Positions 1-16,788 of a stretch of 64,000 bases of DNA are shown one piece after another. Source of the stretch: Bacteroidia bacterium. Lineage in GTDB: Bacteria > Bacteroidota > Bacteroidia > Bacteroidales > VadinHA17. A program made the position numbers and the translations under genes. Position 1 is the first letter of the stretch, and each line of letters begins with the position of its first letter. The stretch is from contig JAPLDX010000090.1 in assembly GCA_026391215.1 (NCBI GenBank), positions 37,222 through 101,221 on the forward strand, in the 5' to 3' direction. Under the pieces are notes generated by a model that saw nothing but the letters and a program-made list of their open reading frames with translations, was not told the DNA's origin and did not search any database.

Positions 1-535
1 CAAATTGTACAGCAATTTTCCCTGTCAGGAACGGATCTTCACCATAGGTTTCCTGCCCTCTTCCCCAGCGTGGATCCCTGAAAAGATTAATATTAGGAGA
101 CCAGAACGTCAGACCCTGGTAAATCCTTCTGGAATTATTCCTTACAAATTCATGATGCTTGGCTCGGGCTTCATCTGAAATAGCAGTGGCTACTCTGAAT
201 ATCAGGTCCTCATCCCATGTAGCGCCCAGTCCAATTGCCTGGGGAAACACTGTTGCCACTCCTGCTCTTGCAACACCATGGAGGCATTCATTCCACCAGT
301 TATAAGCCGGGATGCCCAGTCTTTCTATTGCAGGCGCCGAGTTCATCATCTGGCCGATCTTTTCATCAACCGTCAATCTGCTAACCAGATCATTTACACG
401 TACTTCTATCGACAAATCTGGATTCTGAAAAGGAAGCTCCCAGGTTTGCTGAGCTTTAGCAATCTGGCTGATACAAACCAGTATAAGCAGAGCTATAAGA
501 ACTCTCTTAAGGATCAATTTAATGTTTATCTTCAT
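1..535 (-). CDS. GH3 beta-xylosidase/beta-glucosidase, N-terminal part (runs off window start)
   Basis: Absent from the ORF track; translated by hand from ATG at 535: MKINIKLILKRVLIALLILVCISQIAKAQ (signal peptide)...RLGIPAYNWWNECLHGVARAG.ATVFPQAIGLGATWD...GLTFWSPNINLFRDPRWGRGQETYGEDP, typical GH3 motifs. Confidence 0.93.
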   Translation of the reverse strand, partial: MKINIKLILKRVLIALLILVCISQIAKAQQTWELPFQNPDLSIEVRVNDLVSRLTVDEKIGQMMNSAPAIERLGIPAYNWWNECLHGVARAGVATVFPQAIGLGATWDEDLIFRVATAISDEARAKHHEFVRNNSRRIYQGLTFWSPNINLFRDPRWGRGQETYGEDPFLTGKIAVQF

Positions 536-594
536 GGCGATATTAATGAGGTTTTCTTATTTTTATACCGTTAAGCCGTTGAACCTTTGTGCCG

Positions 595-1296
595 TTATGC
601 CTTGCTTCTCCTATAAATACAGTCTTTCATATCGCAAAGGCTGCAGGTATAAGGGTGTCTTTTTACATTCTTGCCTATACCGATAATTCCGCTGATTGAT
701 TTCATCGGATACATCAGTGCTGAAGACGATAATTTTATTTCGCAAAAGTTATCCGTCAACAGCTGAAACAGTTTATGCTGTTCAGCAACAAGCCAGCCGC
801 AGTATCCCGGGCTGAACCTGTTAGTGATCCCTTTACCCAGGGCGTTTATTTCTCTTTCAAGCTGGTCCTGCATAAGATCTGCAGCTGCCTCAACAGCCTC
901 ACTACCAACAACATCATAGATATAACCTCTCAGCAGATCCCCTTCCTTCATCGATTTCTTACTCCTGGCTCCGATCTCCTCTCCTGCCGTACATAAAAAC
1001 AAAGCTGCTGAATCCGATTTCTTAATCTGGCTGTAAATGATCTTTTTTATTTGGAAGACCAGGCCGTTTATAGTCACAGTTTTTTCGGCTTCGTCAAATG
1101 CAATATCATCAAAAAACCTGTATTCTGCTTTCATTGTACAGATCTCCTCTGCTTCTTTCAGAACCTCTGAAACAAGTTCAGAAATAGTCTCCTGTGACTC
1201 TCCTTCCTTATAACCCATGACACTTTCAACCTGGGAAACAGCGAGTTTCAGATCCTTAAAGTCAAATTGAAAAGTTGATCCGGTCATTAATTCCAT
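595..1296 (-). CDS. Stand-alone AdoMet-dependent reactivation domain of B12-dependent methionine synthase (Met_synt_B12 type)
   Basis: RFSPGYCGW, MYPMKSISGIIGIG and C-terminal CSLCDMKDCIYRR motifs; lies in a corrinoid operon. Confidence 0.88.
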   Translation of the reverse strand: MELMTGSTFQFDFKDLKLAVSQVESVMGYKEGESQETISELVSEVLKEAEEICTMKAEYRFFDDIAFDEAEKTVTINGLVFQIKKIIYSQIKKSDSAALFLCTAGEEIGARSKKSMKEGDLLRGYIYDVVGSEAVEAAADLMQDQLEREINALGKGITNRFSPGYCGWLVAEQHKLFQLLTDNFCEIKLSSSALMYPMKSISGIIGIGKNVKRHPYTCSLCDMKDCIYRRSKA

Positions 1297-1303
1297 TATT
1301 CAT

Positions 1304-1377
1304 CACCCCCCATCCCCCCTGAAGGGGGGCTAAAATGTACTGCTAATTAAGCCCCATTTAGGGGGTTTGGGGGTCAG
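1304..1377. repeat. GC-rich palindromic REP/MITE-like element, copy 1
   Basis: CCCCCCATCCCCCCTGAAGGGGGGCT...AGCCCCATTTAGGGGGTTTGGGGGTCAG: each arm is a small hairpin and the arms are inverted relative to each other; same layout and same GGGGGTCAG end as 8451-8610. Confidence 0.75.
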
Positions 1378-2809
1378 TTAATCCTGATTCTTTTACTATC
1401 CTTTCCACAACATCTTCCCAGCCCAGAGTCATAAGATGTATTCCATTTACTCCTTTCTTCCCTTTGAGTGATTCTATGATTTCCAGCACTATCTGTATTC
1501 CTTCCTCTGCTGCTCCGTCTCCTGCCTTCTCCATACGCTTCAGAACATTCTCCGGTAAAAAGACTCCCGGAACTTTGTCATGAAGGTATCTGGCCACATT
1601 ATAACTTTTCAAAGGTGCGATGCCAACCAATATGAAGACCTTTTTAAGCACATCTCTTTTATCCAGCTCTTCCATCCAATTGCTCAGCCTTGAAGGTTCA
1701 AAAATGATATTTGTCTGGAAGAACTGTGCGCCTGCATTGACTTTTTTATGATCTCTTATAGCTTGCAATTCAGGATCGGATGCAAATGGCGATGTTGCTG
1801 CGCCAAGAAAATACATGGGAGGATATTTTATATTTCTTCCATCAAGATAAATACCTTCATCTCTCATTTTCCTCAGTATCCATAGCATCTGGACAGAATC
1901 TATATCAAGAAGATTCATCTCTGCAGTTGGTGCCGGGCCAACTTTCGGGCTGTCGCCTGTTACGCACAGAATATTTTTCACTCCGAACTGGCTGGAACCT
2001 ATTACTGTGGACTGAAGCCCTATGCGGGTGGTATCGCGGGCAGCTATTTGCAGTACAGGTTCAACATGCAGGTCATTTGCCACCCTGCAGCATGCCAGGC
2101 TCGACATTTTAGGATTTGCTGAAGCAGCGTCAGTAAAATTAATAGCAGTTACATAAGGCCTTACAAGCTCAATATCCCTGATAAGTTTTCCTGAAGCTGC
2201 ACCCAGCGGAGGTATTACCTCCGTGGCAACTATAAATTCACCGTTCCTTAATTTTGTTTCCAGATTTGAAGCAGGTTCCTGATAAGAGGCAGGATGAAAA
2301 TCAGAATCCCCGGCCCACCATTCCGGCTGCCGGATAGTTTTGAAAACAGAATCCCAGGTCCTGTCGCTCTTTTCCTTGTCTCTTGATAAGTATCCACTCA
2401 GAAATGAAACAGTACCAACCTTTCTCACCTGGCGTATCACTTCTCCCCAGGTTTCAGTTCCGACCTTGTTATAGTCGAGAGGGGGTAATACCTCAAGAAG
2501 GGTTTCCTTGCGTCCTGTTTTCAGCGCTCTTTTATAAATGGCGTACCAGATGCAATCACGTGTCTCATCTACGTAACATTTTTTTTCAGGTGTTACTCCT
2601 CCGCAGGGTCCGTTTCTCAATCCTTTAGGACACTCCATCGGACAGATCATGGCTGTCTCCTGCAAGAGGCAATTTCCGCACATTCTGCAGCCAAAAACAG
2701 GTCCTTTGATAATTAGTTCTGTTTTGGCAAGGAGTCTTCGGCCGAATTTTTCCTTCTTAAAGGGATAAAAGGCAGGCTGCCATCTGCGGGAGGGTTTGAT
2801 ACCTGACAT
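1358..2809 (-). CDS. metF: Methylenetetrahydrofolate reductase with fused N-terminal MetV-like Cys-rich domain (MetV-MetF fusion)
   Basis: N-terminal CRMCGNC...CPMECPKGLRNGPCGG...C..C.W cluster; C-terminal MTHFR barrel with ATEVIPP, AINFTD, NILCVTGD, KKVNAGAQFFQTN, GIHLM. Confidence 0.88.
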   Translation of the reverse strand: MSGIKPSRRWQPAFYPFKKEKFGRRLLAKTELIIKGPVFGCRMCGNCLLQETAMICPMECPKGLRNGPCGGVTPEKKCYVDETRDCIWYAIYKRALKTGRKETLLEVLPPLDYNKVGTETWGEVIRQVRKVGTVSFLSGYLSRDKEKSDRTWDSVFKTIRQPEWWAGDSDFHPASYQEPASNLETKLRNGEFIVATEVIPPLGAASGKLIRDIELVRPYVTAINFTDAASANPKMSSLACCRVANDLHVEPVLQIAARDTTRIGLQSTVIGSSQFGVKNILCVTGDSPKVGPAPTAEMNLLDIDSVQMLWILRKMRDEGIYLDGRNIKYPPMYFLGAATSPFASDPELQAIRDHKKVNAGAQFFQTNIIFEPSRLSNWMEELDKRDVLKKVFILVGIAPLKSYNVARYLHDKVPGVFLPENVLKRMEKAGDGAAEEGIQIVLEIIESLKGKKGVNGIHLMTLGWEDVVERIVKESGLTDPQTP

Positions 2810-3648
2810 TATTGCCGGCTCTGGAAATATTCAACAAATCTTACTGCATAGTCATCCCTCCCAAGGACCAGGTCTGTAGCACGTACCATAGCAGTTATTT
2901 TTTCGGGATTGGCGATGGGACATGTCAGCCCGTTATAGATTGACAGAGCCATATATGATGCATTCAATGTCTCCCTGTCGGGTAATCCGAAAGAAATATT
3001 GCTGGCGCCCTGGGTAATATTATGGCCCAGCTTCTGATGCACAAGCCTCATTGTTTCCAGGGTTACCATGCAGGCTTTCTGATCAGCGCTTACTGCCATA
3101 GCCAGAGGGTCAATAATAACATCCTCTGCTTTAATCCCGGCTTTTATAGCTCGTTCAATTATTTTTTCCGCAACTGCTACTCTTTTTACCGGGTCATTCG
3201 TGATTCCTTCCTCGTCCATGCATAATCCTATAATTGCAGCACCATACTCCTTTGCTACCGGCAGAAGAGCTTTCATTGAAGCCTCTTCACCGTTTACTGA
3301 ATTTATAAGACATTTGCCCTCTGCTGCTTTTAGAGCAGCCTCTATGGCTTTTGGATTCGGTGAATCCAGACACAGGGGAACTTCAAATTTATCCTGAAGC
3401 CTTTTTACGGTTTCCGCAAGCAGCTTCACATCATCCACACCGGGAAATCCGACATTCACATCAAGCACATCAGCACCTGCTTTAATCTGACATTCTGCAA
3501 GTTCGAGAACATATTCAAAATTTCCTTCCAGGAGGGTGGAAACCAGCTTTTTCCTCCTGGTTGGATTTATGGATTCACCTATGATAATGACAGGGCCGCT
3601 GGTATCAATTATAACTTCCTTGTACCTCCCCTTAAGAATTGTTTTCAT
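2809..3648 (-). CDS. Pterin-binding methyltetrahydrofolate:corrinoid methyltransferase (MetH pterin domain / AcsE-like)
   Basis: IIGESINPTRRK, GADVLDVNVG, LCLDS, INSVNGE, IIDPL, GASNISFGLP motifs. Confidence 0.9.
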   Translation of the reverse strand: MKTILKGRYKEVIIDTSGPVIIIGESINPTRRKKLVSTLLEGNFEYVLELAECQIKAGADVLDVNVGFPGVDDVKLLAETVKRLQDKFEVPLCLDSPNPKAIEAALKAAEGKCLINSVNGEEASMKALLPVAKEYGAAIIGLCMDEEGITNDPVKRVAVAEKIIERAIKAGIKAEDVIIDPLAMAVSADQKACMVTLETMRLVHQKLGHNITQGASNISFGLPDRETLNASYMALSIYNGLTCPIANPEKITAMVRATDLVLGRDDYAVRFVEYFQSRQ

Positions 3649-3664
3649 TTCGCGTATTTTCCAG

Positions 3665-4333
3665 CTAAGATACTATTTGGTTCAAATAATTTACTGCTCC
3701 CTGCGGGTCGGGAGAATAATAATCTGCTCCTATTTTTTCACAATATTCCTTAGTGACAGGTGCACCACCAACGAGAATTTTAATGCCGGATTTTTTTTCA
3801 CGGATAGCCGTGACGGTTTTCTTCATGTTTTCCATGGTTGTGGTAAGCAAGGCTGAGAGACCTATTACTGCTCCGGGATTTTCATCAATGGCTTTAATGA
3901 ACTTATCTGTCCCTACATCCACTCCAAGGTCTATCACTTCCCATCCTCCTCCCTCGATCATCATAGCCACAAGGTTTTTACCTATATCGTGCAGGTCACC
4001 TGCTACGGTACCGATAATAAATTTCCCTTTCCTCTTGGCTTCTCCTGACTGGAAAAATGGTTTAAGATGTTTCATAGCGCTGCTCATAGATTTAGCTGCC
4101 ATTAACATCTGGGGCACATAAATTTCCTTCCTGCTGAATTTGTCCCCGACAATTGCCATTGCAGGAATCAACGCCTTTTCAAGAATATCACCAGGCTTCA
4201 TTCCATCGTCGATGGCCTTCCTTGTCAGTTCATCGGCTCCATCCTGGCCTTTCATATCTGGTGGATAAGGAGATGCTTTATCTATTTTACCAAATTCAAC
4301 ACAACTGGAAATCTTACTTAAAATATCATCCAT
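3665..4333 (-). CDS. Corrinoid (B12-binding) protein, MtbC/MttC-like
   Basis: Cap domain plus GTVAGDLHDIGKNLV (DxHxxG), SALLTTTM and VGGAPVT motifs. Confidence 0.93.
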   Translation of the reverse strand: MDDILSKISSCVEFGKIDKASPYPPDMKGQDGADELTRKAIDDGMKPGDILEKALIPAMAIVGDKFSRKEIYVPQMLMAAKSMSSAMKHLKPFFQSGEAKRKGKFIIGTVAGDLHDIGKNLVAMMIEGGGWEVIDLGVDVGTDKFIKAIDENPGAVIGLSALLTTTMENMKKTVTAIREKKSGIKILVGGAPVTKEYCEKIGADYYSPDPQGAVNYLNQIVS

Positions 4334-4398
4334 AGATTATCTGTATTTGAAAAAGACAAAATTATGATAATAGATCAGTGTTTACTTTGATTCTGTAT

Positions 4399-4406
4399 CA
4401 AATTTA
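4399..4406 (-). promoter_or_regulatory. Bacteroidota housekeeping -7 promoter motif (TAAATTTG) for the corrinoid operon
   Basis: Matches TAnnTTTG about 65 nt upstream of the start at 4333; an alternative TAATTTTG lies at 4357-4364. Confidence 0.45.
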
Positions 4407-4421
4407 GTAATTAATTTAATT

Positions 4422-4437
4422 TTGCAACCGATTGCAA
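4422..4437. promoter_or_regulatory. LacI/GalR-family operator-like palindrome TTGCAACCGATTGCAA
   Basis: Fits the TGnAAnCGnTTnCA consensus with central CG; lies in the divergent intergenic region and overlaps a + strand TAATTTTG (4417-4424). Confidence 0.65.
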
Positions 4438-4522: not shown

Positions 4523-6046
4523 ATGAAATACTTTGTGATTTTGGCTTTAAGCTGTTTCTTCAGCCTTGCTTCCGCTCAGAACATGGATACAGGAATCTTT
4601 CAGAACAGTAAAGATATCGGGAATCCTAAGAATCCCGGTTCTGCACTCTATGATGCAGCAGACCAAACCTATACCCTGAAAGGTTCAGGCTATAACATAT
4701 GGTTTGAGAGAGATGAATTCCACTTCCTCTATAATGAAATAAAAGGGGACTTTATCATGACTGCCAATTTTAAATTTACAGGCGATGGCAGTAACCCACA
4801 CAGAAAGACCGGATGGATGCTGCGTGCATCGACAAATGATGATTCGCCGCATATCTCGGCCGTCCTTCATGGTGACGGTCTGACAGTGATGCAATGGAGA
4901 GACTTCGCCGGAGCTCCAATGAAAGATCCCGAAGACGAGGTGTTTGCAAAAGGATCCGGCTATGAAATCATCCAGATAGAACGTGCCGGCAAGATTATTT
5001 TCATGAGGGCAGCACACCAGGGAGAGCCACTTGAAACAATCGGATCATACGAAATGATGAACCTTCCTGATGAGATTATAGCAGGACCTTTCATCTGCTC
5101 CCATGATTCTGATATTGTTGAAGAAGCAACTATATGGAACGTCCGCATTGATAAACCTGTCGGAGATAACCTTAATCCCGGCAGAGAAGGTTCTTCCGGA
5201 TGTCGTCTTGAAACGATGGATGTCTTTGACGGCAAGAGAACTATTATATTTGAGAAGGCAGGCAGGTTTGAAGCTCCAAACTGGATGCCCGATGGCAAAA
5301 AGCTCCTTTTTAATATGGATGGACTGCTGTATAAAATACCGGTGACCGGAGGAGAAATTGAAAAGCTAAATACTGGTTTTGCCGACAGGAACAATAATGA
5401 TCATGGCATTTCATTCAATGGTAAATTACTGGCTATCAGTCATCAGCGCGAAGGTTTGCCAGGAGGTGGCTCAACAGTTTATGTTCTTCCGCTTAAGGGA
5501 GGCACTCCCCGCATGGTAACTGAAAACACTCCCTCATACTGGCATGGATGGGCACCAAATAATAAAGAGGTGGTATATGTTGCCCAGCGGAATGGTAAAA
5601 ATATCTATAACATTTACAGGAATTCAATAAAGGGAGGCAAAGAGGTTGCTCTTACCGACATCGGGCCCGGTGAGCATGTGGATGGATGTGAATATTCTCC
5701 TGACGGTAAATATATTTATTATAATGGCAGCCATACCGGGAACATGCAGATCTGGCGCATGAAACCTGACGGTACGGGCAGAGAACAGCTTACTTTCGAT
5801 GAATATAGAAACTGGTTCCCCCATATTTCAACCGATGGCAAATGGATAGCTTTCATTTCATTCCCTCCTGATATAGAAAAAAACAGCCACCCTTCGTACA
5901 AACGGGTCATGCTCAGGCTGATGCCTGTGACAGGAGGTCAGCCAAAGGTTATTGCATATCTTTACGGCGGACAGGGAACAATTAACGTTCCCTCCTGGTC
6001 CCCCGACAGCAGACATATTGCATTTGTCAGTAATTCAGGGAAATAG
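4523..6046 (+). CDS. Secreted TolB-like PD40 beta-propeller protein with N-terminal beta-sandwich domain
   Basis: Signal peptide; FEAPNWMPDG, YWHGWAPN, EYSPDGKYIY, WFPHISTDGKW, NVPSWSPDS repeats. Confidence 0.85.
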   Translation: MKYFVILALSCFFSLASAQNMDTGIFQNSKDIGNPKNPGSALYDAADQTYTLKGSGYNIWFERDEFHFLYNEIKGDFIMTANFKFTGDGSNPHRKTGWMLRASTNDDSPHISAVLHGDGLTVMQWRDFAGAPMKDPEDEVFAKGSGYEIIQIERAGKIIFMRAAHQGEPLETIGSYEMMNLPDEIIAGPFICSHDSDIVEEATIWNVRIDKPVGDNLNPGREGSSGCRLETMDVFDGKRTIIFEKAGRFEAPNWMPDGKKLLFNMDGLLYKIPVTGGEIEKLNTGFADRNNNDHGISFNGKLLAISHQREGLPGGGSTVYVLPLKGGTPRMVTENTPSYWHGWAPNNKEVVYVAQRNGKNIYNIYRNSIKGGKEVALTDIGPGEHVDGCEYSPDGKYIYYNGSHTGNMQIWRMKPDGTGREQLTFDEYRNWFPHISTDGKWIAFISFPPDIEKNSHPSYKRVMLRLMPVTGGQPKVIAYLYGGQGTINVPSWSPDSRHIAFVSNSGK

Positions 6047-11975: not shown

Positions 11976-14488
11976 TCTATAATAAAGTCTTTGACAGTAA
12001 TCTCACCAAAGGTTACATCGAGGAAAGGCTTGCCATTTTTCATTCCGGCATTTCCAAAACCTGTGGCTGTTGAAATAAATGAAGTATAATCACCTGTTCC
12101 CGAATTTAAATACATTACCTGATCGACTGCATCGTACCTGATCCCTGAAAGAGCCTGGAGCATTGCATAGCTCGATAGCGCTCTTGCATACCAGTTACCG
12201 CATTCGTACTCATTGAAAGGATTCCGGATCCTTCCGTCATACCTGTCGCGGGCTATCCTTACTATTTCCAGTCCTTTTTCCGATTCGCCCATCATCATAA
12301 GATGAGAGGCTACCTGGTACTCAATACCTGTCCACACTTCATCACTGTAAACGAAGGGAAGTGACAACTTTCCTCCCTTTGGCCAACTGCAAAGCAACAG
12401 TCCTCCCTCATTCCCAAGTGCATATGAAGGGCGCTGAGGATTTGAATGATCTGAAAGATCCCTGCGTAAATTATATTTATATACTGATTTCAGGTGACTT
12501 GCCACTTTAAAGGAATCGACAACATCACTAAGGCCGCATACCTCCCCTATCCATGCACCCAGGATACCATCAGAAAGACATCCTGTGCCATACTGATATT
12601 TTGGACCTTCCTTCTGAAGTAGTGCCCTGGCTTCTTCTGAATAATCCGACGACCATGATCCTTCAGAAGCTTTTACAGGATCCGGAGAACTTAGTCCCTC
12701 CCATTTTATCTTCTGTATGAAATATTCACCATCAAACAGTTCCGATTCTAACGTCTTCCTCCCTTTTGAATAAAGTAATTCATATTTTGAAACATCAGCA
12801 CCAAGGTATTTGCCCATTTCCGCTATAGCTTTCAGGGCTCCCAGGTAGAAGCTTGTACACATCCCATCCGGTCCCCAGAATTCTATGTCGTAAGTGTTAT
12901 GGTGTGGTTCTTCCAGTGTTCCGGTAGAACGGGGATCCCATGTCTTAATGCAATAATCCATGCTTTCTACCACTTTTGGATACAGCTTTTTAAGCCATTC
13001 GGCATTGCCGCTGATATGCCAGTCGCGGTATACTTTCATGATCCCTCCCAGCTGACCATCTGATGCAGCATAAAAAGTAGTTGCGACAGGACGGATCGGC
13101 AAAGCTGATCTGAATGTCTGATGTCCTTCCATATCCTGGCTCGGGAGAAATTCCGTCTCACGCAGGGTTCTCTCAAGTGAAGGGAAAAGATGAGGGATTG
13201 CCTGGGCATAATTCCATACATGGGTGCAGGAGCCGGCACAACAGCCTGAATTATCACCGCATCCCTCCCAGTTCCATAATTTTCCGTCACGCTGACGAAG
13301 AATCGTCGGTGATTTTAAAATTGTAAGGTTAGCAGCTACTGCTTCAATCACTTCAGGAGGATGGGTTGTATTGTAAAATGCATTGCAGAACAATTCGGAT
13401 TTCCCCAGAAGATCACTGTAATTTGTTTTCCAGTAATCTGCAACTTCATTTATCCCGGGAAATTTCGCTGAATACCATGGTTTATAATAGGGATCCTTGC
13501 AGGTACAATCAGTGTCGGTGCACTCCTCATCATCGGGCTCCTTTGAATCCTGGCCGTACTTCATATTAGTGTTTGGTACATACCAGGCCATCATGATCCT
13601 TATTACTTTTGACTCTCCCGGATTTAATGATAATGGCACATAAAGTGATGCACCCGGCGCATCATCCTCAACAGGCGATGTGTTCCTGGTTTCTCCTCTC
13701 AGAATTGTATTCCACGTCATGGTCATCGGGTCCCACCATCCTCCCCTGAACCAGCAATGGTCCACAATAGCTTCAGGCTCTGTGGTATATATTGCAAAAT
13801 CGCCCTGCTTCTCCGGATTTTCCTTGTTCCCCTCCTCAGACAGGATGAATCCTCCTGCAATGGGTTTTACTGAAGCTTTCCCGCCGGATTGGCTCATAAA
13901 ATTTTTGGTATTGTAAGAAAATACACATTCCAGAACTGAACTGCCGGTGTTTTTAAATGAATATTCCAGTGCTCCCACTGGCAAGCTTGAATTATCGGCA
14001 TCAGTAGGAATAAAAGGGCTCCATCCTTTTATCTGGACATTGAGCGGAATATCATTGTCATTCAGCTCAATGCCGGCAAATGGGAATCTTGCATGGAATG
14101 TCGCATTTTTAAATCTTGGAAGTCCATAGGTTGCTCCTGCGGAACCGTTCCCCGAACCAGGTTGTCCAAAGCGCTTCCAGTCCGGGACCTGGCCTTCAAG
14201 GACTTTTGTACCGTTTTCAATTCCCTTGACCGAAATGGCTGCGAATATGCACGGCTCATTGAAAACCTCAGGCTTGTTTCTTACCGACATGTGAGAAATT
14301 GCACCGGTCCCTTCCAGACAAAACATTCCTGCTCCCAATCCTCCGATCGGGAAAGCTATCCTGTTGAGGTATTCTCCTGAATATGTTCCGTTATACTCAT
14401 GTTTCGGATTATCGATTGTACCTTTTTTTTCAGCACAGGAGGTTAATAGCAATCCTCCGGATACTAATAGTACTAAGATCTTATTCAT
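11972..14488 (-). CDS. GH116 glycosidase, lipoprotein
   Basis: IAFPIGGLGAG, WEG...GCCAGSCTHVWNYAQ, HHNTYDIE, DEVWTGIEY, RNPFNEYECG.WYAR; LTSC lipobox. Confidence 0.9.
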   Translation of the reverse strand: MNKILVLLVSGGLLLTSCAEKKGTIDNPKHEYNGTYSGEYLNRIAFPIGGLGAGMFCLEGTGAISHMSVRNKPEVFNEPCIFAAISVKGIENGTKVLEGQVPDWKRFGQPGSGNGSAGATYGLPRFKNATFHARFPFAGIELNDNDIPLNVQIKGWSPFIPTDADNSSLPVGALEYSFKNTGSSVLECVFSYNTKNFMSQSGGKASVKPIAGGFILSEEGNKENPEKQGDFAIYTTEPEAIVDHCWFRGGWWDPMTMTWNTILRGETRNTSPVEDDAPGASLYVPLSLNPGESKVIRIMMAWYVPNTNMKYGQDSKEPDDEECTDTDCTCKDPYYKPWYSAKFPGINEVADYWKTNYSDLLGKSELFCNAFYNTTHPPEVIEAVAANLTILKSPTILRQRDGKLWNWEGCGDNSGCCAGSCTHVWNYAQAIPHLFPSLERTLRETEFLPSQDMEGHQTFRSALPIRPVATTFYAASDGQLGGIMKVYRDWHISGNAEWLKKLYPKVVESMDYCIKTWDPRSTGTLEEPHHNTYDIEFWGPDGMCTSFYLGALKAIAEMGKYLGADVSKYELLYSKGRKTLESELFDGEYFIQKIKWEGLSSPDPVKASEGSWSSDYSEEARALLQKEGPKYQYGTGCLSDGILGAWIGEVCGLSDVVDSFKVASHLKSVYKYNLRRDLSDHSNPQRPSYALGNEGGLLLCSWPKGGKLSLPFVYSDEVWTGIEYQVASHLMMMGESEKGLEIVRIARDRYDGRIRNPFNEYECGNWYARALSSYAMLQALSGIRYDAVDQVMYLNSGTGDYTSFISTATGFGNAGMKNGKPFLDVTFGEITVKDFIID

Positions 14489-14508
14489 AAAAATATCATT
14501 AAATGGTA

Positions 14509-15405
14509 CTAGCTCTCCAATATTTTAACCAGTCTGTCACACAAGTCTTTAAGTCCCTCTGGAGTATCTCCTCCCGGCTGCTCAATTGTAGCCCATCCAT
14601 TATACCCGATCCCGTCAAGGGCTTTCATGACTTTTGTCCAGTTCACATCACCTTCAGTCAATTTAACTTCAAAACCAGCAGATTTGCCCTGTTTGTCCGC
14701 AATCTTGCGACTATATTCCTTGATATGAACTTTGGCTATCCTTTTCTCCAGGATTTTGATCCACTGTTCTGGCCAACCATAAGCAAGGATATTGCCACAG
14801 TCAAAATAAAAACCTACAAAAGGACTCCCGAACTGATCGACATAAGAAGCCGCTTCCATCGGACTTAGCAGGAAATTATTCCAGACATTTTCCACTCCAA
14901 TCTTTACATTGAGTTTTTCAGCAAGTGGTATAGCTTTCTTTAACTCATCTGACGATCTGTTCCAGCACTCATCATAGCTGACAGTGTCATTTACTCTTCC
15001 GGGTACAAGCAGAACCGTATCTGCTCCATAGACCTGTGAATCTTCAATTGCAACTTTCAGTGCCTCCACACCTTTTTCTCTCACTTGAGGATCCGGATCA
15101 GACAGAGGGAATTTCCAATGCATTTCGTCGCAAACACTGGGTATCGATAAACCTGTCGCATCACGCGCTTTAAGTACTTCGTTCCTGTCAAGATGACTCA
15201 TTACTTCAATCCCGTCGAAACCGGCGGCTTTTGCAGACTGGAATTTTTCATAAATGGTTTTGCCAACACCATTGCTCCCCCACATTATTCCTTTTTTTAT
15301 ACTTCTCACGGGAGGAAGAAGTTTTCCTGAGAGACCATGAAAAGGCGCAATTGAAAACGCTGCAGAAGCCATCATGGTTCCTTTTGTGAATTGCCTTCTA
15401 TTCAT
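14509..15405 (-). CDS. Tat-exported sugar phosphate isomerase/epimerase-family (xylose-isomerase-like TIM barrel) protein
   Basis: MNRRQF Tat motif; ENVWNNFLLSP, FDCGN, HIKE metal ligands. Confidence 0.88.
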   Translation of the reverse strand: MNRRQFTKGTMMASAAFSIAPFHGLSGKLLPPVRSIKKGIMWGSNGVGKTIYEKFQSAKAAGFDGIEVMSHLDRNEVLKARDATGLSIPSVCDEMHWKFPLSDPDPQVREKGVEALKVAIEDSQVYGADTVLLVPGRVNDTVSYDECWNRSSDELKKAIPLAEKLNVKIGVENVWNNFLLSPMEAASYVDQFGSPFVGFYFDCGNILAYGWPEQWIKILEKRIAKVHIKEYSRKIADKQGKSAGFEVKLTEGDVNWTKVMKALDGIGYNGWATIEQPGGDTPEGLKDLCDRLVKILES

Positions 15406-15432
15406 AAATAACTTATTTTGAGCATTATAATG

Positions 15433-16788
15433 TTAAACATTTGATTCTGTCCCGATTATCGGAATCACCTCCGGAATACCAGGGACGGGGCCAAATGCAT
15501 ATGTTTTCGGACCGAGATACAGGTCTGAATTCATTACCTCCTCCCATGTCACGTCTTTTCCCGAATATGCTGACATACGTCCCATAATTGTAATAAGGGA
15601 GGAGTTCACCTGAGCTTCAGCATCGTTAACTACGTTGCCCGTACGGATCCCTGTTATCAGATTAATATGTTCCTGAACATAAGGATCAGTTACCTTCCAG
15701 GTTTCATCAGCCGATCCCTCTTCTGGTGTTGGATATTTCCATATCTCCTCTCCTTTCAGGTTATATAATATCCCCTTTGCGTCAGCAAATCCATTGGTGC
15801 CCACTATAAACTGTTTTGTAAGATTACTGCAGCCGGTGATCTGTCGTGCAGCACAATGGGTATGCATGCCGTTGTCATAAATATATTCTATGCTGAAGAA
15901 GTCATACTGGTCACCAGTCACCCTTCTCTGGCGTCCGCCCCAGCCGATAGCCTTTACAGGGATCTTTCCAAGATACCAGTTCATCACATCAATTTCATGA
16001 ATGAACTGCTCAACAATATGATCACCTGAAAGCCAGCAGAAATTCGCCCAGTTTCTGAGCATATACTCCATATCGGTCCATCCGGGTTTTCGTTTTATAA
16101 CCCAGAGTGAACCGCCATTGCGGATAATATGAGCGCTGACGATATCCCCTATTTCACCGTTCATTACTCTCCTCTTTGTTTCCATGAAATCTTTCTGAAC
16201 CCTCCTGATCGTTCCGCTGACCAGGCATAATCCCTTTTCCTTTGCTCTTTCAATGGAAACCATCACTGAACGAGCCCCTACAGGATCGACTGCACATGGT
16301 TTTTCAAGGAATATATGTTTGCCCGCTTCGACCGCTGCTGCAATATGGACAGGACGGAAATGAGGAGGTGTGCATAGAAGCACAACATCAACGCCTGAGT
16401 CAATTACTTTCTGATAGCTGTCAAATCCAGTGAAGCATTTTTCATCAGCTATTTCAATGTTCCTTTCCTTTTTAAGCTGCTCCCGGCATTGATCAAGTCT
16501 GTCCCTGAAAACATCTCCAAGGGCAGTTATCTGAAGGTTTGGACCTGCATCCACGAAGTTAACTGCAGCTCCCGTACCTCTACCTCCACATCCTACGAGC
16601 CCCGCTTTAAGGACTGGTCCGTCTGGAGCCTGTGTCAGAAGAGCAGGAAGCTTTTCTTCCTCTTTCTTTGGTTCTGTTCCTTTGCATGAACTGATGATTC
16701 CCATTGAGCCTAATGCAGCCGCAGCCATAGTAGTGTTCGAGATAAATTTTCTGCGGCCGATTTTCTTGTGTGAAGTCTCTTTTTTCAT
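15433..16788 (-). CDS. Tat-exported Gfo/Idh/MocA oxidoreductase (lipoprotein)
   Basis: Start moved to 16788 (MKKETSHKKIGRRKF...SSC); GLVGCGGRGTGA, TPPHFR, EKP, SGDHIVEQFIH. Confidence 0.9.
   Translation of the reverse strand: MKKETSHKKIGRRKFISNTTMAAAALGSMGIISSCKGTEPKKEEEKLPALLTQAPDGPVLKAGLVGCGGRGTGAAVNFVDAGPNLQITALGDVFRDRLDQCREQLKKERNIEIADEKCFTGFDSYQKVIDSGVDVVLLCTPPHFRPVHIAAAVEAGKHIFLEKPCAVDPVGARSVMVSIERAKEKGLCLVSGTIRRVQKDFMETKRRVMNGEIGDIVSAHIIRNGGSLWVIKRKPGWTDMEYMLRNWANFCWLSGDHIVEQFIHEIDVMNWYLGKIPVKAIGWGGRQRRVTGDQYDFFSIEYIYDNGMHTHCAARQITGCSNLTKQFIVGTNGFADAKGILYNLKGEEIWKYPTPEEGSADETWKVTDPYVQEHINLITGIRTGNVVNDAEAQVNSSLITIMGRMSAYSGKDVTWEEVMNSDLYLGPKTYAFGPVPGIPEVIPIIGTESNV

Follow-up and report, generated by a model that had tools for sequence, protein, structure and literature searches.

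A sugar-regulated corrinoid methyl-transfer operon in Bacteroidales: candidate folate branch of an O2-independent demethylase acting on methylated sugars of glycans

The closest described relatives of the locus analysed here are the three-component O-demethylases of acetogens and Desulfitobacterium, in which a substrate methyltransferase (MT1) of the UroD/MtaA fold, such as OdmB or VdmB, works with a separate corrinoid carrier made of a cap and a Rossmann domain and with a pterin-binding methyltransferase (MT2), so that the methyl group ends on tetrahydrofolate (THF). The locus lies at the left end of a 64,000-nucleotide stretch, the window, of a Bacteroidales genome of the VadinHA17 lineage (GenBank assembly GCA_026391215.1, contig JAPLDX010000090.1; G000:C10:37222-101221). 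The genome is 3.39 Mb in 135 contigs and 98.9% complete. Four genes of the window encode a carrier (CORR), an MT2, a MetV-MetF fusion (MetVF) and a protein resembling the activation domain of MetH (ACT). As in the O-demethylases, the carrier is a separate cap and Rossmann protein, the second methyltransferase is of the pterin type, THF is the predicted methyl acceptor, and UroD/MtaA-fold proteins are the MT1 candidates. Unlike in those systems, the host is a saccharolytic member of the Bacteroidales that has no MtaB, MttB or RACo; a MetH-activation-domain protein takes the place of the ATP-dependent RACE/RamA activator; MT1 is encoded outside the operon, a methylenetetrahydrofolate reductase (MTHFR) is encoded inside it, and the whole belongs to a LacI xylan regulon; and the presumed substrates are sugar (alkyl) methyl ethers instead of aryl ethers. 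We conclude that the operon is real and conserved, serves corrinoid methyl transfer under sugar regulation, and is a variant of the three-component systems. We further propose, with a probability of roughly 55%, that its four genes form the folate-side half of an O2-independent demethylase, distributed over the genome, that acts on methylated glycan sugars.

Other described systems share parts of this plan. MetH, including the split Thermotoga maritima form TM0268 + TM0269, has homologous folate, cap/B12 and activation modules; unlike MetH, the operon has no homocysteine module and shows sugar-type regulation, and ACT carries five invariant cysteines. In Ruegeria, a carrier and folate methyltransferase core (MtgC/MtgD) also serves MT1s encoded apart, but there the setting is aerobic and marine, the MT1, of the MttB family, acts on a quaternary amine, and methionine synthesis cannot proceed without the system (accessible part of PMC12478193), whereas the genome analysed here has no MttB and a complete MetH. 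The presumed task, removal of a shielding sugar methyl group, is also that of the P450 6-O-methyl-D-galactose demethylases of Zobellia and Formosa. Those are unrelated enzymes that hydroxylate with O2 and release formaldehyde, whereas here the methyl group would be kept on folate without O2; the carbohydrate demethylases that we found described, P450 enzymes of marine bacteria, all need oxygen (PMC6292453, as far as its accessible text goes). The Type 1 mlp clusters of the Kountz and Balskus preprint (PMC10418091) pair UroD-superfamily methyltransferases with a methylotroph-type carrier in non-methanogens; some related Bacteroidales clusters of our survey likewise encode ~340- or 455-aa MtaA-like proteins and CobW-type proteins. 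They are proposed to serve methyl-sulfur or methyl-selenide metabolism, and the superfamily is described there as including the O-demethylases OdmB and VdmB. Within the portion of the preprint available to us, the main text nowhere contains the string 'Bacteroid', and neither the ~420-aa family linked to sugar porters nor the folate/MetVF branch is described. The full-text literature, a coverage outside which most subscription journals lie, yielded nothing on corrinoid or cobalamin demethylation of sugars, 4-O-methylglucuronate or methyl-galactose.

Sugar methyl ethers, such as 4-O-methylglucuronate in hardwood xylan and in arabinogalactans, block glycoside hydrolases and later catabolism, and other methylated sugars occur in pectin and algal galactans. 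How strict anaerobes handle these methyl groups matters in sediments, peat, digesters and guts. If true, our proposal would mean one more step in anaerobic hemicellulose breakdown, a link between glycan use and the economy of folate, methionine and B12 (including the B12 dependence of fibre degraders), a source of O2-free demethylation catalysts and new chemistry among the corrinoid methyltransferases. The system is also widespread, with ACT in 68 of 401 sampled genomes and at least 8000 sequence clusters in the UroD-fold family.

The operon, the operator upstream of it and the gene that follows it are laid out as follows (window coordinates):

4333..3665, minus strand: CORR, corrinoid carrier, 222 aa; PF02310 93.6 bits, PF02607 66.8 bits
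3648..2809, minus strand: MT2, pterin-binding methyltransferase, 279 aa; PF00809 103 bits, NF005719 271 bits
2809..1358, minus strand: MetVF, MetV-MetF fusion, 483 aa; PF12225 87.7 bits, PF02219 104.8 bits
1296..595, minus strand: ACT, MetH-activation-domain protein, 233 aa; PF02965 36.6 bits, cut-off 25
535..2, minus strand, continuing left of the window: N-terminal part of a GH3 protein, PF00933; whole protein 742 aa
4423..4436, no strand: operator palindrome TGCAACCGATTGCA, within the 189 nt between the divergent genes

The initial annotation, made from the letters of the window, had described four packed, co-oriented genes with a GH3 gene 60 nt further on, and this layout holds on the minus strand, the last gap being 59 nt. 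CORR and MT2 are 16 nt apart, the MT2 stop and the MetVF start overlap as TAATG, and 61 nt separate MetVF from ACT. No terminator-like site was found between the operon genes, including the 59-nt ACT-GH3 gap, and a CE15 glucuronoyl esterase gene (PF22244, 97.6 bits) follows GH3 after 6 nt, left of the window; GH3 and CE15 may be co-transcribed with the four corrinoid-relay genes. The N terminus of GH3 is signal-peptide-like, its N-terminal 178 aa match the model of the xylosidase Xyl3A at 237 bits, and the part left of the window contains PF01915 and Fn3-like domains. By these matches it is a predicted secreted beta-xylosidase-like enzyme.

CORR has a cap and a Rossmann domain and a GDLHDIGKN loop, which we take to be a DxHxxG-type B12 motif and which is invariant in 10 carriers. 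Its top NCBIfam models are methylotrophic (MtgC_2 at 186.5 bits, TIGR02370 at 177.2 bits, and MtbC), all below their cut-offs, and the MetH model falls behind MtgC_2 and TIGR02370 with 130.7 bits. CORR is 57-66% identical (41% in one row) to carriers encoded beside UroD-fold methyltransferases in other Bacteroidales. Its sequence assigns it to the stand-alone corrinoid proteins of the MtaC/MtbC/MtgC type. MT2 exceeds the NF005719 cut-off (271 bits against 259) and scores 148.7 bits with region 330-592 of TIGR02082 (metH). Its closest solved relatives are 4o0q, presumably the D. hafniense O-demethylase MT2, the MeTr entries 2yck/2yci and the folate domain of Thermotoga MetH (1q7m), in keeping with a predicted role as a methyltransferase working between methyl-corrinoid and THF. 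In MetVF, PF12225 covers residues 37-113 and PF02219 residues 184-476; a MetV-like, Cys-rich N-terminal part and an MTHFR are joined in one protein, which is an extra MTHFR beside the housekeeping metF on contig C105. The genome also encodes a formate-THF ligase.

For the last of the four proteins, an S-adenosylmethionine (AdoMet)-type reactivase in place of an ATP-dependent RACE protein had been suggested, and the whole genome agrees: it has no PF14574 match, that is, no RACE/RACo/RamA-type ATP-dependent activase, and a MetH-activation-type protein is encoded in the operon. PF02965 has two matches in the genome, ACT and the activation domain of metH. A profile built from 17 ACT homologues matched a single sequence in the PDB, 1j6r (TM0269, the stand-alone Thermotoga activation domain). 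The structure model of ACT (predicted local distance difference test, pLDDT, 83) gave the same entry as its top fold match, with an E-value of 1e-11 and a TM-score of 0.83 on the target; MetH reactivation domains came next in rank. The RFSPGY of ACT aligns with RISPGY of TM0269, and we take such an RxxPGY / RxxxGY stretch to be the AdoMet-binding motif. ACT is presumed, from sequence and model, to be an AdoMet-dependent reactivase. Five cysteines are invariant in ACT (Cys166, Cys185, Cys218, Cys221 and Cys226); the last three form a C-terminal CxxCxxxxC that has low confidence in the model and is missing from the aligned part of TM0269. Our guess is that the cysteines hold a metal or Fe-S centre for electron input. 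The ACT family comprises 1589 proteins at E <= 0.001 among 1917 candidates, mostly from metagenome-assembled genomes of Bacteroidales, and carries the source names hypothetical, 'activation domain' and 'methionine synthase'. We also considered ACT as a substrate methyltransferase derived from an AdoMet domain, and set this aside as the less likely role: RxxPGY is kept, and ACT has UroD-fold neighbours in 31 of 68 genomes.

One tie between the four genes and sugars is the operator. The LacI-type site proposed upstream of CORR is borne out as a 14-bp palindrome of the TGNAANCGNTTNCA type, which we take to be the LacI-family operator consensus. Its exact pattern, TGCAANCGNTTGCA, has two copies in the 3.39-Mb genome: the one at window 4423-4436, and one at C18:4270, ~77 nt upstream of an operon with GH3 and an MFS_2 transporter of the glycoside-pentoside-hexuronide type. 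One-mismatch copies at C10:24790 and C10:24812 stand beside a LacI-family gene, which is followed by xylB and a xylA-like gene; on the other side, 17 kb left of the window, is a divergent set of DUF6807, SusC, SusD, GFO/IDH/MocA and DUF6807 genes. Relaxed matches number eight genome-wide; apart from the sites named above, relaxed or one-mismatch matches are on C11, C38, C50, C73 and C119 and at C10:79797, and that at C119:10405 falls within a DnaE-like gene and is treated as a chance match. Of 69 related loci, 16 have the exact operator within 300 nt upstream of the CORR gene; among the coding control stretches, 0 have it. By its sequence, the operator ties the operon to the xylose/xylan regulon, and the LacI protein encoded near the xylose/xylan locus presumably binds the window operator.

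Gene neighbourhoods in relatives point to the same regulon. A scan of GTDB species genomes gave at least 593 confirmed ACT stretches, of which the best 80 were used with 10-kb flanks; labelling by open reading frames and BLAST found ACT in 79 of these 80 loci (L035 was missed), and several locus contigs are short, which makes the gene counts over the 79 loci lower bounds. CORR was found in 72, MT2 in 69 and MetVF in 59. Among the sugar genes, xylB was present in 38 loci, xylA in 36, GH115 in 16, GH3 in 13 and CE15 in 3, and any of these five stood within 10 kb in 56 of the 79. The xylB-xylA pair very often comes after ACT on the same strand. GFO was counted in 35 loci, DUF6807b in 30 and LacI in 18. 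We take GH115 to be xylan alpha-glucuronidase and CE15 to be glucuronoyl esterase; the names are those of Pfam, and the substrate details are our assumption.

A relay of this kind needs a substrate methyltransferase, which the initial annotation had missed in the window and had suggested looking for to its left. None was found in the window or in the 20 kb adjoining its left end. The candidates are on other contigs: four UroD-family genes are present in the genome, all scoring higher with MtaA/CmuA than with HemE and all below the cut-offs, and two of them stand out by their neighbours:

UROD1, contig C130: 424 aa, UroD/MtaA-fold MT1 candidate beside a sugar-porter MFS gene
UROD2, contig C133: 417 aa, UroD/MtaA-fold MT1 candidate beside a sugar-porter MFS gene

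Their sequences are 59% identical. The UROD1 locus reads GH78, 3-keto-disaccharide-hydrolase-like gene, GFO, sugar-porter MFS, UROD1 and xylose-isomerase-like TIM barrel, and convergent to it are GH88, a GH116-like gene, DUF2961 and a heparinase-II/III-like lyase. After UROD2 come a gene for a XylE-like sugar porter (TIGR00879, 357 bits, cut-off 238) and then genes for a DUF5107-TPR protein and GH2. A sequence search of the PDB with UROD2 gave no match at E 0.01, and its model (pLDDT 91) found MtaA (4ay7) as top fold match, followed by uroporphyrinogen decarboxylases. In the ~420-aa family of these proteins (UROD420), an HxC motif (His309, Cys311) is invariant in 23 members; the family has at least 8000 sequence clusters, with the source names 'methyltransferase', 'URO-D' and 'hypothetical'. 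Methanol and methylamines were rejected as donors in this genome, which has no MtaB and no MttB.

The same machinery, running in the same direction, could instead draw its methyl groups from methoxylated aromatics freed together with xylan, such as ferulate of feruloylated arabinoxylan or lignin fragments released by CE15, a chemistry for which the acetogen O-demethylases give a precedent. The operon is followed by CE15, which we take to act at lignin-carbohydrate bonds. Record titles place relatives in fens, sediments and digesters, and OdmB and VdmB are UroD-superfamily MT1s that act on phenyl methyl ethers (accessible parts of PMC10418091 and PMC3727330). However, the MT1 candidates adjoin transporters of the sugar-porter family, of which that beside UROD2 passes the cut-off and is closest to XylE; in one genome a UROD gene stands with genes for glucuronate isomerase and a hexuronate-type MFS, amid glycoside hydrolase genes; and the loci examined show no aromatic-acid transporter and no aromatic-catabolism gene. 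We regard aromatic donors as unlikely, though as an alternative to be taken seriously.

Whether carrier and candidate MT1 fit each other was addressed by structure prediction. The carrier (alignment of 10) and UROD2 (alignment of 23) gave a predicted complex scoring 0.79, against 0.00 for the best of three controls; a mark of 0.79 is reached by 116 of 157 solved complexes and by 2 of 215 mismatched pairs. The runs share at least 97% of contacts, both partners have pLDDT of at least 90, and the predicted interface on the carrier includes the DxHxxG loop (residues 111-117) and the cap helix. The pass may reflect family likeness, since related carrier-methyltransferase complexes have already been solved, and proteins closely related to a true partner pass as well. 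The prediction shows a fit to the docking mode of the family, short of binding.

Co-occurrence supports the pairing across the order. In a sample of 401 genomes (UROD420 at E <= 1e-30, UroD-family genes in general at E <= 1e-10; overlaps counted by hand), ACT is present in 68 genomes and UROD420 in 42, with both in 33 of the 42. A UroD-family gene occurs in 141 of the 401, namely in 66 of the 68 with ACT vs. 75 of the 333 others, and in 31 of the 68 it lies on the same contig within ~4 kb of ACT. GH115 is present in 75 of the 401; ACT occurs in 35 of these 75 vs. 33 of the 326 without GH115. Among the 79 related loci, UROD420 lies two genes upstream of CORR-MT2-MetVF-ACT in L018, and a sugar porter comes directly after ACT in L085. 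Ten ACT-UroD loci (L116-L125) were taken and labelled, with these gene sets:

L119: UxaC, MFS, UROD420, CORR, ACT, DUF309, and a divergent LacI gene
L120: ACT, sugar porter, CORR, UROD420
L121 and L123: UROD420, CORR, 335-336-aa UroD protein, ACT
L122 and L125: UROD420, CORR, stand-alone PF02574 homocysteine methyltransferase, ACT
L116-L118: these gene families together with CobW-type proteins; in L116 also a UroD-thioredoxin fusion

In L122 and L125, UROD420 would be the donor-side enzyme (MT1), because the homocysteine module fits the acceptor side only. Going by gene content, the predicted acceptor module is variable between genomes and consists of folate, homocysteine or an MtaA-like protein.

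As a separate observation, L116-L118 also encode ~455-aa UroD-family proteins (L116:4769-6136, L117:5425-6786 and L118:62-1423) and CobW-type GTPases within the carrier/ACT clusters (L116:3858-4772, L117:6867-7946 and L118:1494-2432), which suggests metal insertion and a thiol-linked acceptor branch.

All parts of the operon are MetH-like, and an operon-borne MTHFR mirrors the metH-metF pair elsewhere in the genome. The operon might then be a split second methionine synthase, in which MetVF, MT2 and CORR would work with a separate thiol methyltransferase (a ~340-aa MtaA-like protein, or the homocysteine domain of MetH) and ACT would reactivate. Related clusters do carry a stand-alone PF02574 protein beside the same carrier and ACT families, and Ruegeria shares one core between methionine synthesis and demethylation (accessible part of PMC12478193). 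Contig C105, however, carries hom, metF and a five-module metH (G000:C105:41195-44836; L005:2196-5837) with its own activation domain (PF02965, 356 bits). The homocysteine module inside this metH is the sole PF02574 match in the genome; a PF02574 profile search of the whole genome found no stand-alone homocysteine methyltransferase, and the window has no homocysteine-binding module, as first stated. Nor is a LacI operator shared with xylose/xylan genes, or the synteny in 56 of 79 loci, expected for methionine synthesis, and the PF02574-bearing clusters lack a pterin MT2 and have UROD420, consistent with a methyl donor that is not methyl-THF. In our estimate, a split second methionine synthase is distinctly unlikely. 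In the assembled metH, a single in-frame TAA stands where a Tyr codon is conserved (L005:3324-3326), and the contigs of four of four public sequencing runs read TAC (Tyr) there; the TAA probably reflects an error of assembly or consensus, or else a rare variant, and a metH pseudogene replaced by this operon was rejected, the stop being absent from the contigs of the four runs. Because a complete metH with its own activation domain is present and there is no other PF02574 protein, the operon is, on its predicted gene content, not the methionine synthase of the cell. The initial annotation had held the same and is upheld by a separate, intact, full-length metH beside metF and hom; the opposite arrangement that it had named, a stand-alone homocysteine methyltransferase in a genome without metH, is not seen.

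We propose the following route for the demethylase. A cytoplasmic UROD1 or UROD2 would take the methyl group of an imported O-methylated sugar, such as 4-O-methylglucuronate from glucuronoxylan or arabinogalactan side chains, and methylate Co(I) of CORR; MT2 would hand the methyl group to THF; and MetVF would oxidise methyl-THF to methylene-THF, from which the one-carbon unit could go into biosynthesis or to formate. ACT would use AdoMet to restore, through reductive methylation, carrier whose cobalt has by accident been oxidised to Co(II). The operon would be controlled by a repressor of the LacI family, that of the xylose/xylan regulon, and so be expressed with xylan products. The analysis shows the gene content, the assignment of domains and folds, the sharing of the operator, the synteny, the co-occurrence and a docking prediction; the substrate, the direction of methyl flow and the pairing of regulator and operator are what we infer here. 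Excess methyl-THF traps folate, and the presence of MetVF in the operon fits the oxidative direction because a catabolic methyl flux would trap folate as methyl-THF.

The opposite direction has also to be weighed, with the relay running synthetically from methylene-THF and delivering methyl to a small molecule or thiol during growth on xylan, as methylation or as an electron sink. MT2 and MetVF are in principle reversible, and we take MetVF-type reductases to be best known in the reductive direction. The ~340- and 455-aa MtaA-like proteins, the thioredoxin-fused UroD protein and the CobW proteins of the related clusters are as in the thiol/selenide clusters (accessible part of PMC10418091). 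Against this, no acceptor-side enzyme is linked to the operon in the 79 loci, and the PF02574 variants place UROD420 on the donor side; methylation of a sugar hydroxyl from methyl-Co(III) is, as we understand the chemistry, improbable. We consider a synthetic relay very unlikely.

For the demethylase reading, a sugar is the likely substrate because of the sugar-porter genes, the glycoside hydrolases and the LacI xylan regulon. The leading candidate would be 4-O-methylglucuronate, with other O-methyl sugars or cyclitols possible: relatives have GH115 and CE15 neighbours, the L119 operon contains UxaC and a hexuronate-type MFS, UROD1 is surrounded by genes of glucuronate-directed enzymes, namely GH88, a lyase and GH78, and across the order ACT is commoner in genomes with GH115 than in those without. 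Hexuronate catabolism genes (UxaC, KduI, UxaE and a hexuronate-type MFS) are present in the genome. A bolder claim, to which we give somewhat less than even odds, is that the ~420-aa UroD-fold family activates an aliphatic sugar ether and methylates a corrinoid protein, that the methyl group is kept on folate or, in other genomes, homocysteine, and that a cysteine-rich reactivase of the MetH-activation type sustains the relay in place of an ATP-dependent one, which would make this the first O2-independent carbohydrate demethylase. The initial annotation had proposed that the operon strips O-methyl groups from plant or algal sugars; the separate metH, the operator, the synteny and MT1 candidates encoded elsewhere support it in part, and the inspection to the left of the window that it had suggested turned up no MT1.

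Several points weigh against this reading. The MT1 candidates lie on contigs other than that of the operon, with no operator copy, strict or relaxed, near UROD1 or UROD2 (none of the relaxed matches is on C130 or C133), and among the 79 related xylan-type loci a UROD420 gene is within 10 kb in just one. In the 401-genome sample, ACT is missing from 9 of the 42 genomes with UROD420, and UROD420 (at E 1e-30) from 35 of the 68 with ACT; the genomes of one order are kin, so that the co-occurrence counts overstate independence. The genome has no GH67, and its GH115 is a 44-aa relic only; the sampled members of the source genus lack GH115. With no GH67 or GH115, release of 4-O-methylglucuronate from xylan by the organism itself would be impossible with known enzymes. 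We know of no biochemical precedent for a corrinoid enzyme that demethylates an aliphatic sugar methyl ether; the substrates of the known O-demethylases are aryl methyl ethers, with better leaving groups. Oxidation of methyl-THF is energetically awkward, and for that reason MetVF fits the reductive direction equally. The support throughout is comparative genomics and models.

One further gene adjoins the operon across the divergent intergenic region:

4523..6046, plus strand: secreted PD40 (TolB-like) beta-propeller protein, PF07676; 507 aa

It has an uncharacterised N-terminal ~220 aa before the TolB-like propeller, and a homologue, present in 37 of the 79 related loci, is usually just upstream of the operon and divergent. 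We rejected it as the MT1: its N terminus is signal-peptide-like, and the operator is also present in loci without a PD40 gene (e.g. L064, L069, L071 and L074). The protein appears to be a conserved neighbour, which does not imply membership in the corrinoid system.

The GH115 relic is a 44-aa stretch at C10:24970-25101 (L004:7671-7802), between the LacI and DUF6807 genes, and is 64% identical to the C terminus of the GH115 alpha-glucuronidases of relatives. It sits where relatives have a whole GH115 gene and looks like a lost gene. Pairs of GFO/IDH/MocA and DUF6807 genes (on C10, L004:7847-9106 and 14383-16672) recur convergent to the operon in 30-35 of the 79 loci; the nearest NCBIfam model of the GFO/IDH/MocA protein, below cut-off, is the glycoside 3-dehydrogenase BT_2158 family, and the pairs may form a module of this regulon that processes glycosides oxidatively.

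A second corrinoid protein is encoded on the contig of UROD1 (C130:12025-12708, minus strand; 227 aa), 75% identical to CORR in protein and 76% in DNA. This paralogue stands alone beside a 422-aa multi-pass membrane protein that has no Pfam family, with an asnA gene and an ECF sigma/FecR/SusC set nearby. The fourth UroD/MtaA-like gene (344 aa; L103:6168-8608, on C38) lies beside a gene for the glycine-cleavage P protein and is followed after 11 nt by an oxidoreductase with a PF16490 C-terminal domain. Finally, the spacer between MetVF and ACT (window 1297-1357) contains a G+C-rich hairpin, CCCCCC-TTCA-GGGGGG plus flanks, whose fold energy is no better than that of shuffled sequences (z -0.7) and which recurs at ~30 other places in the genome, on many contigs and at 78-100% identity, in the manner of a REP-like element.

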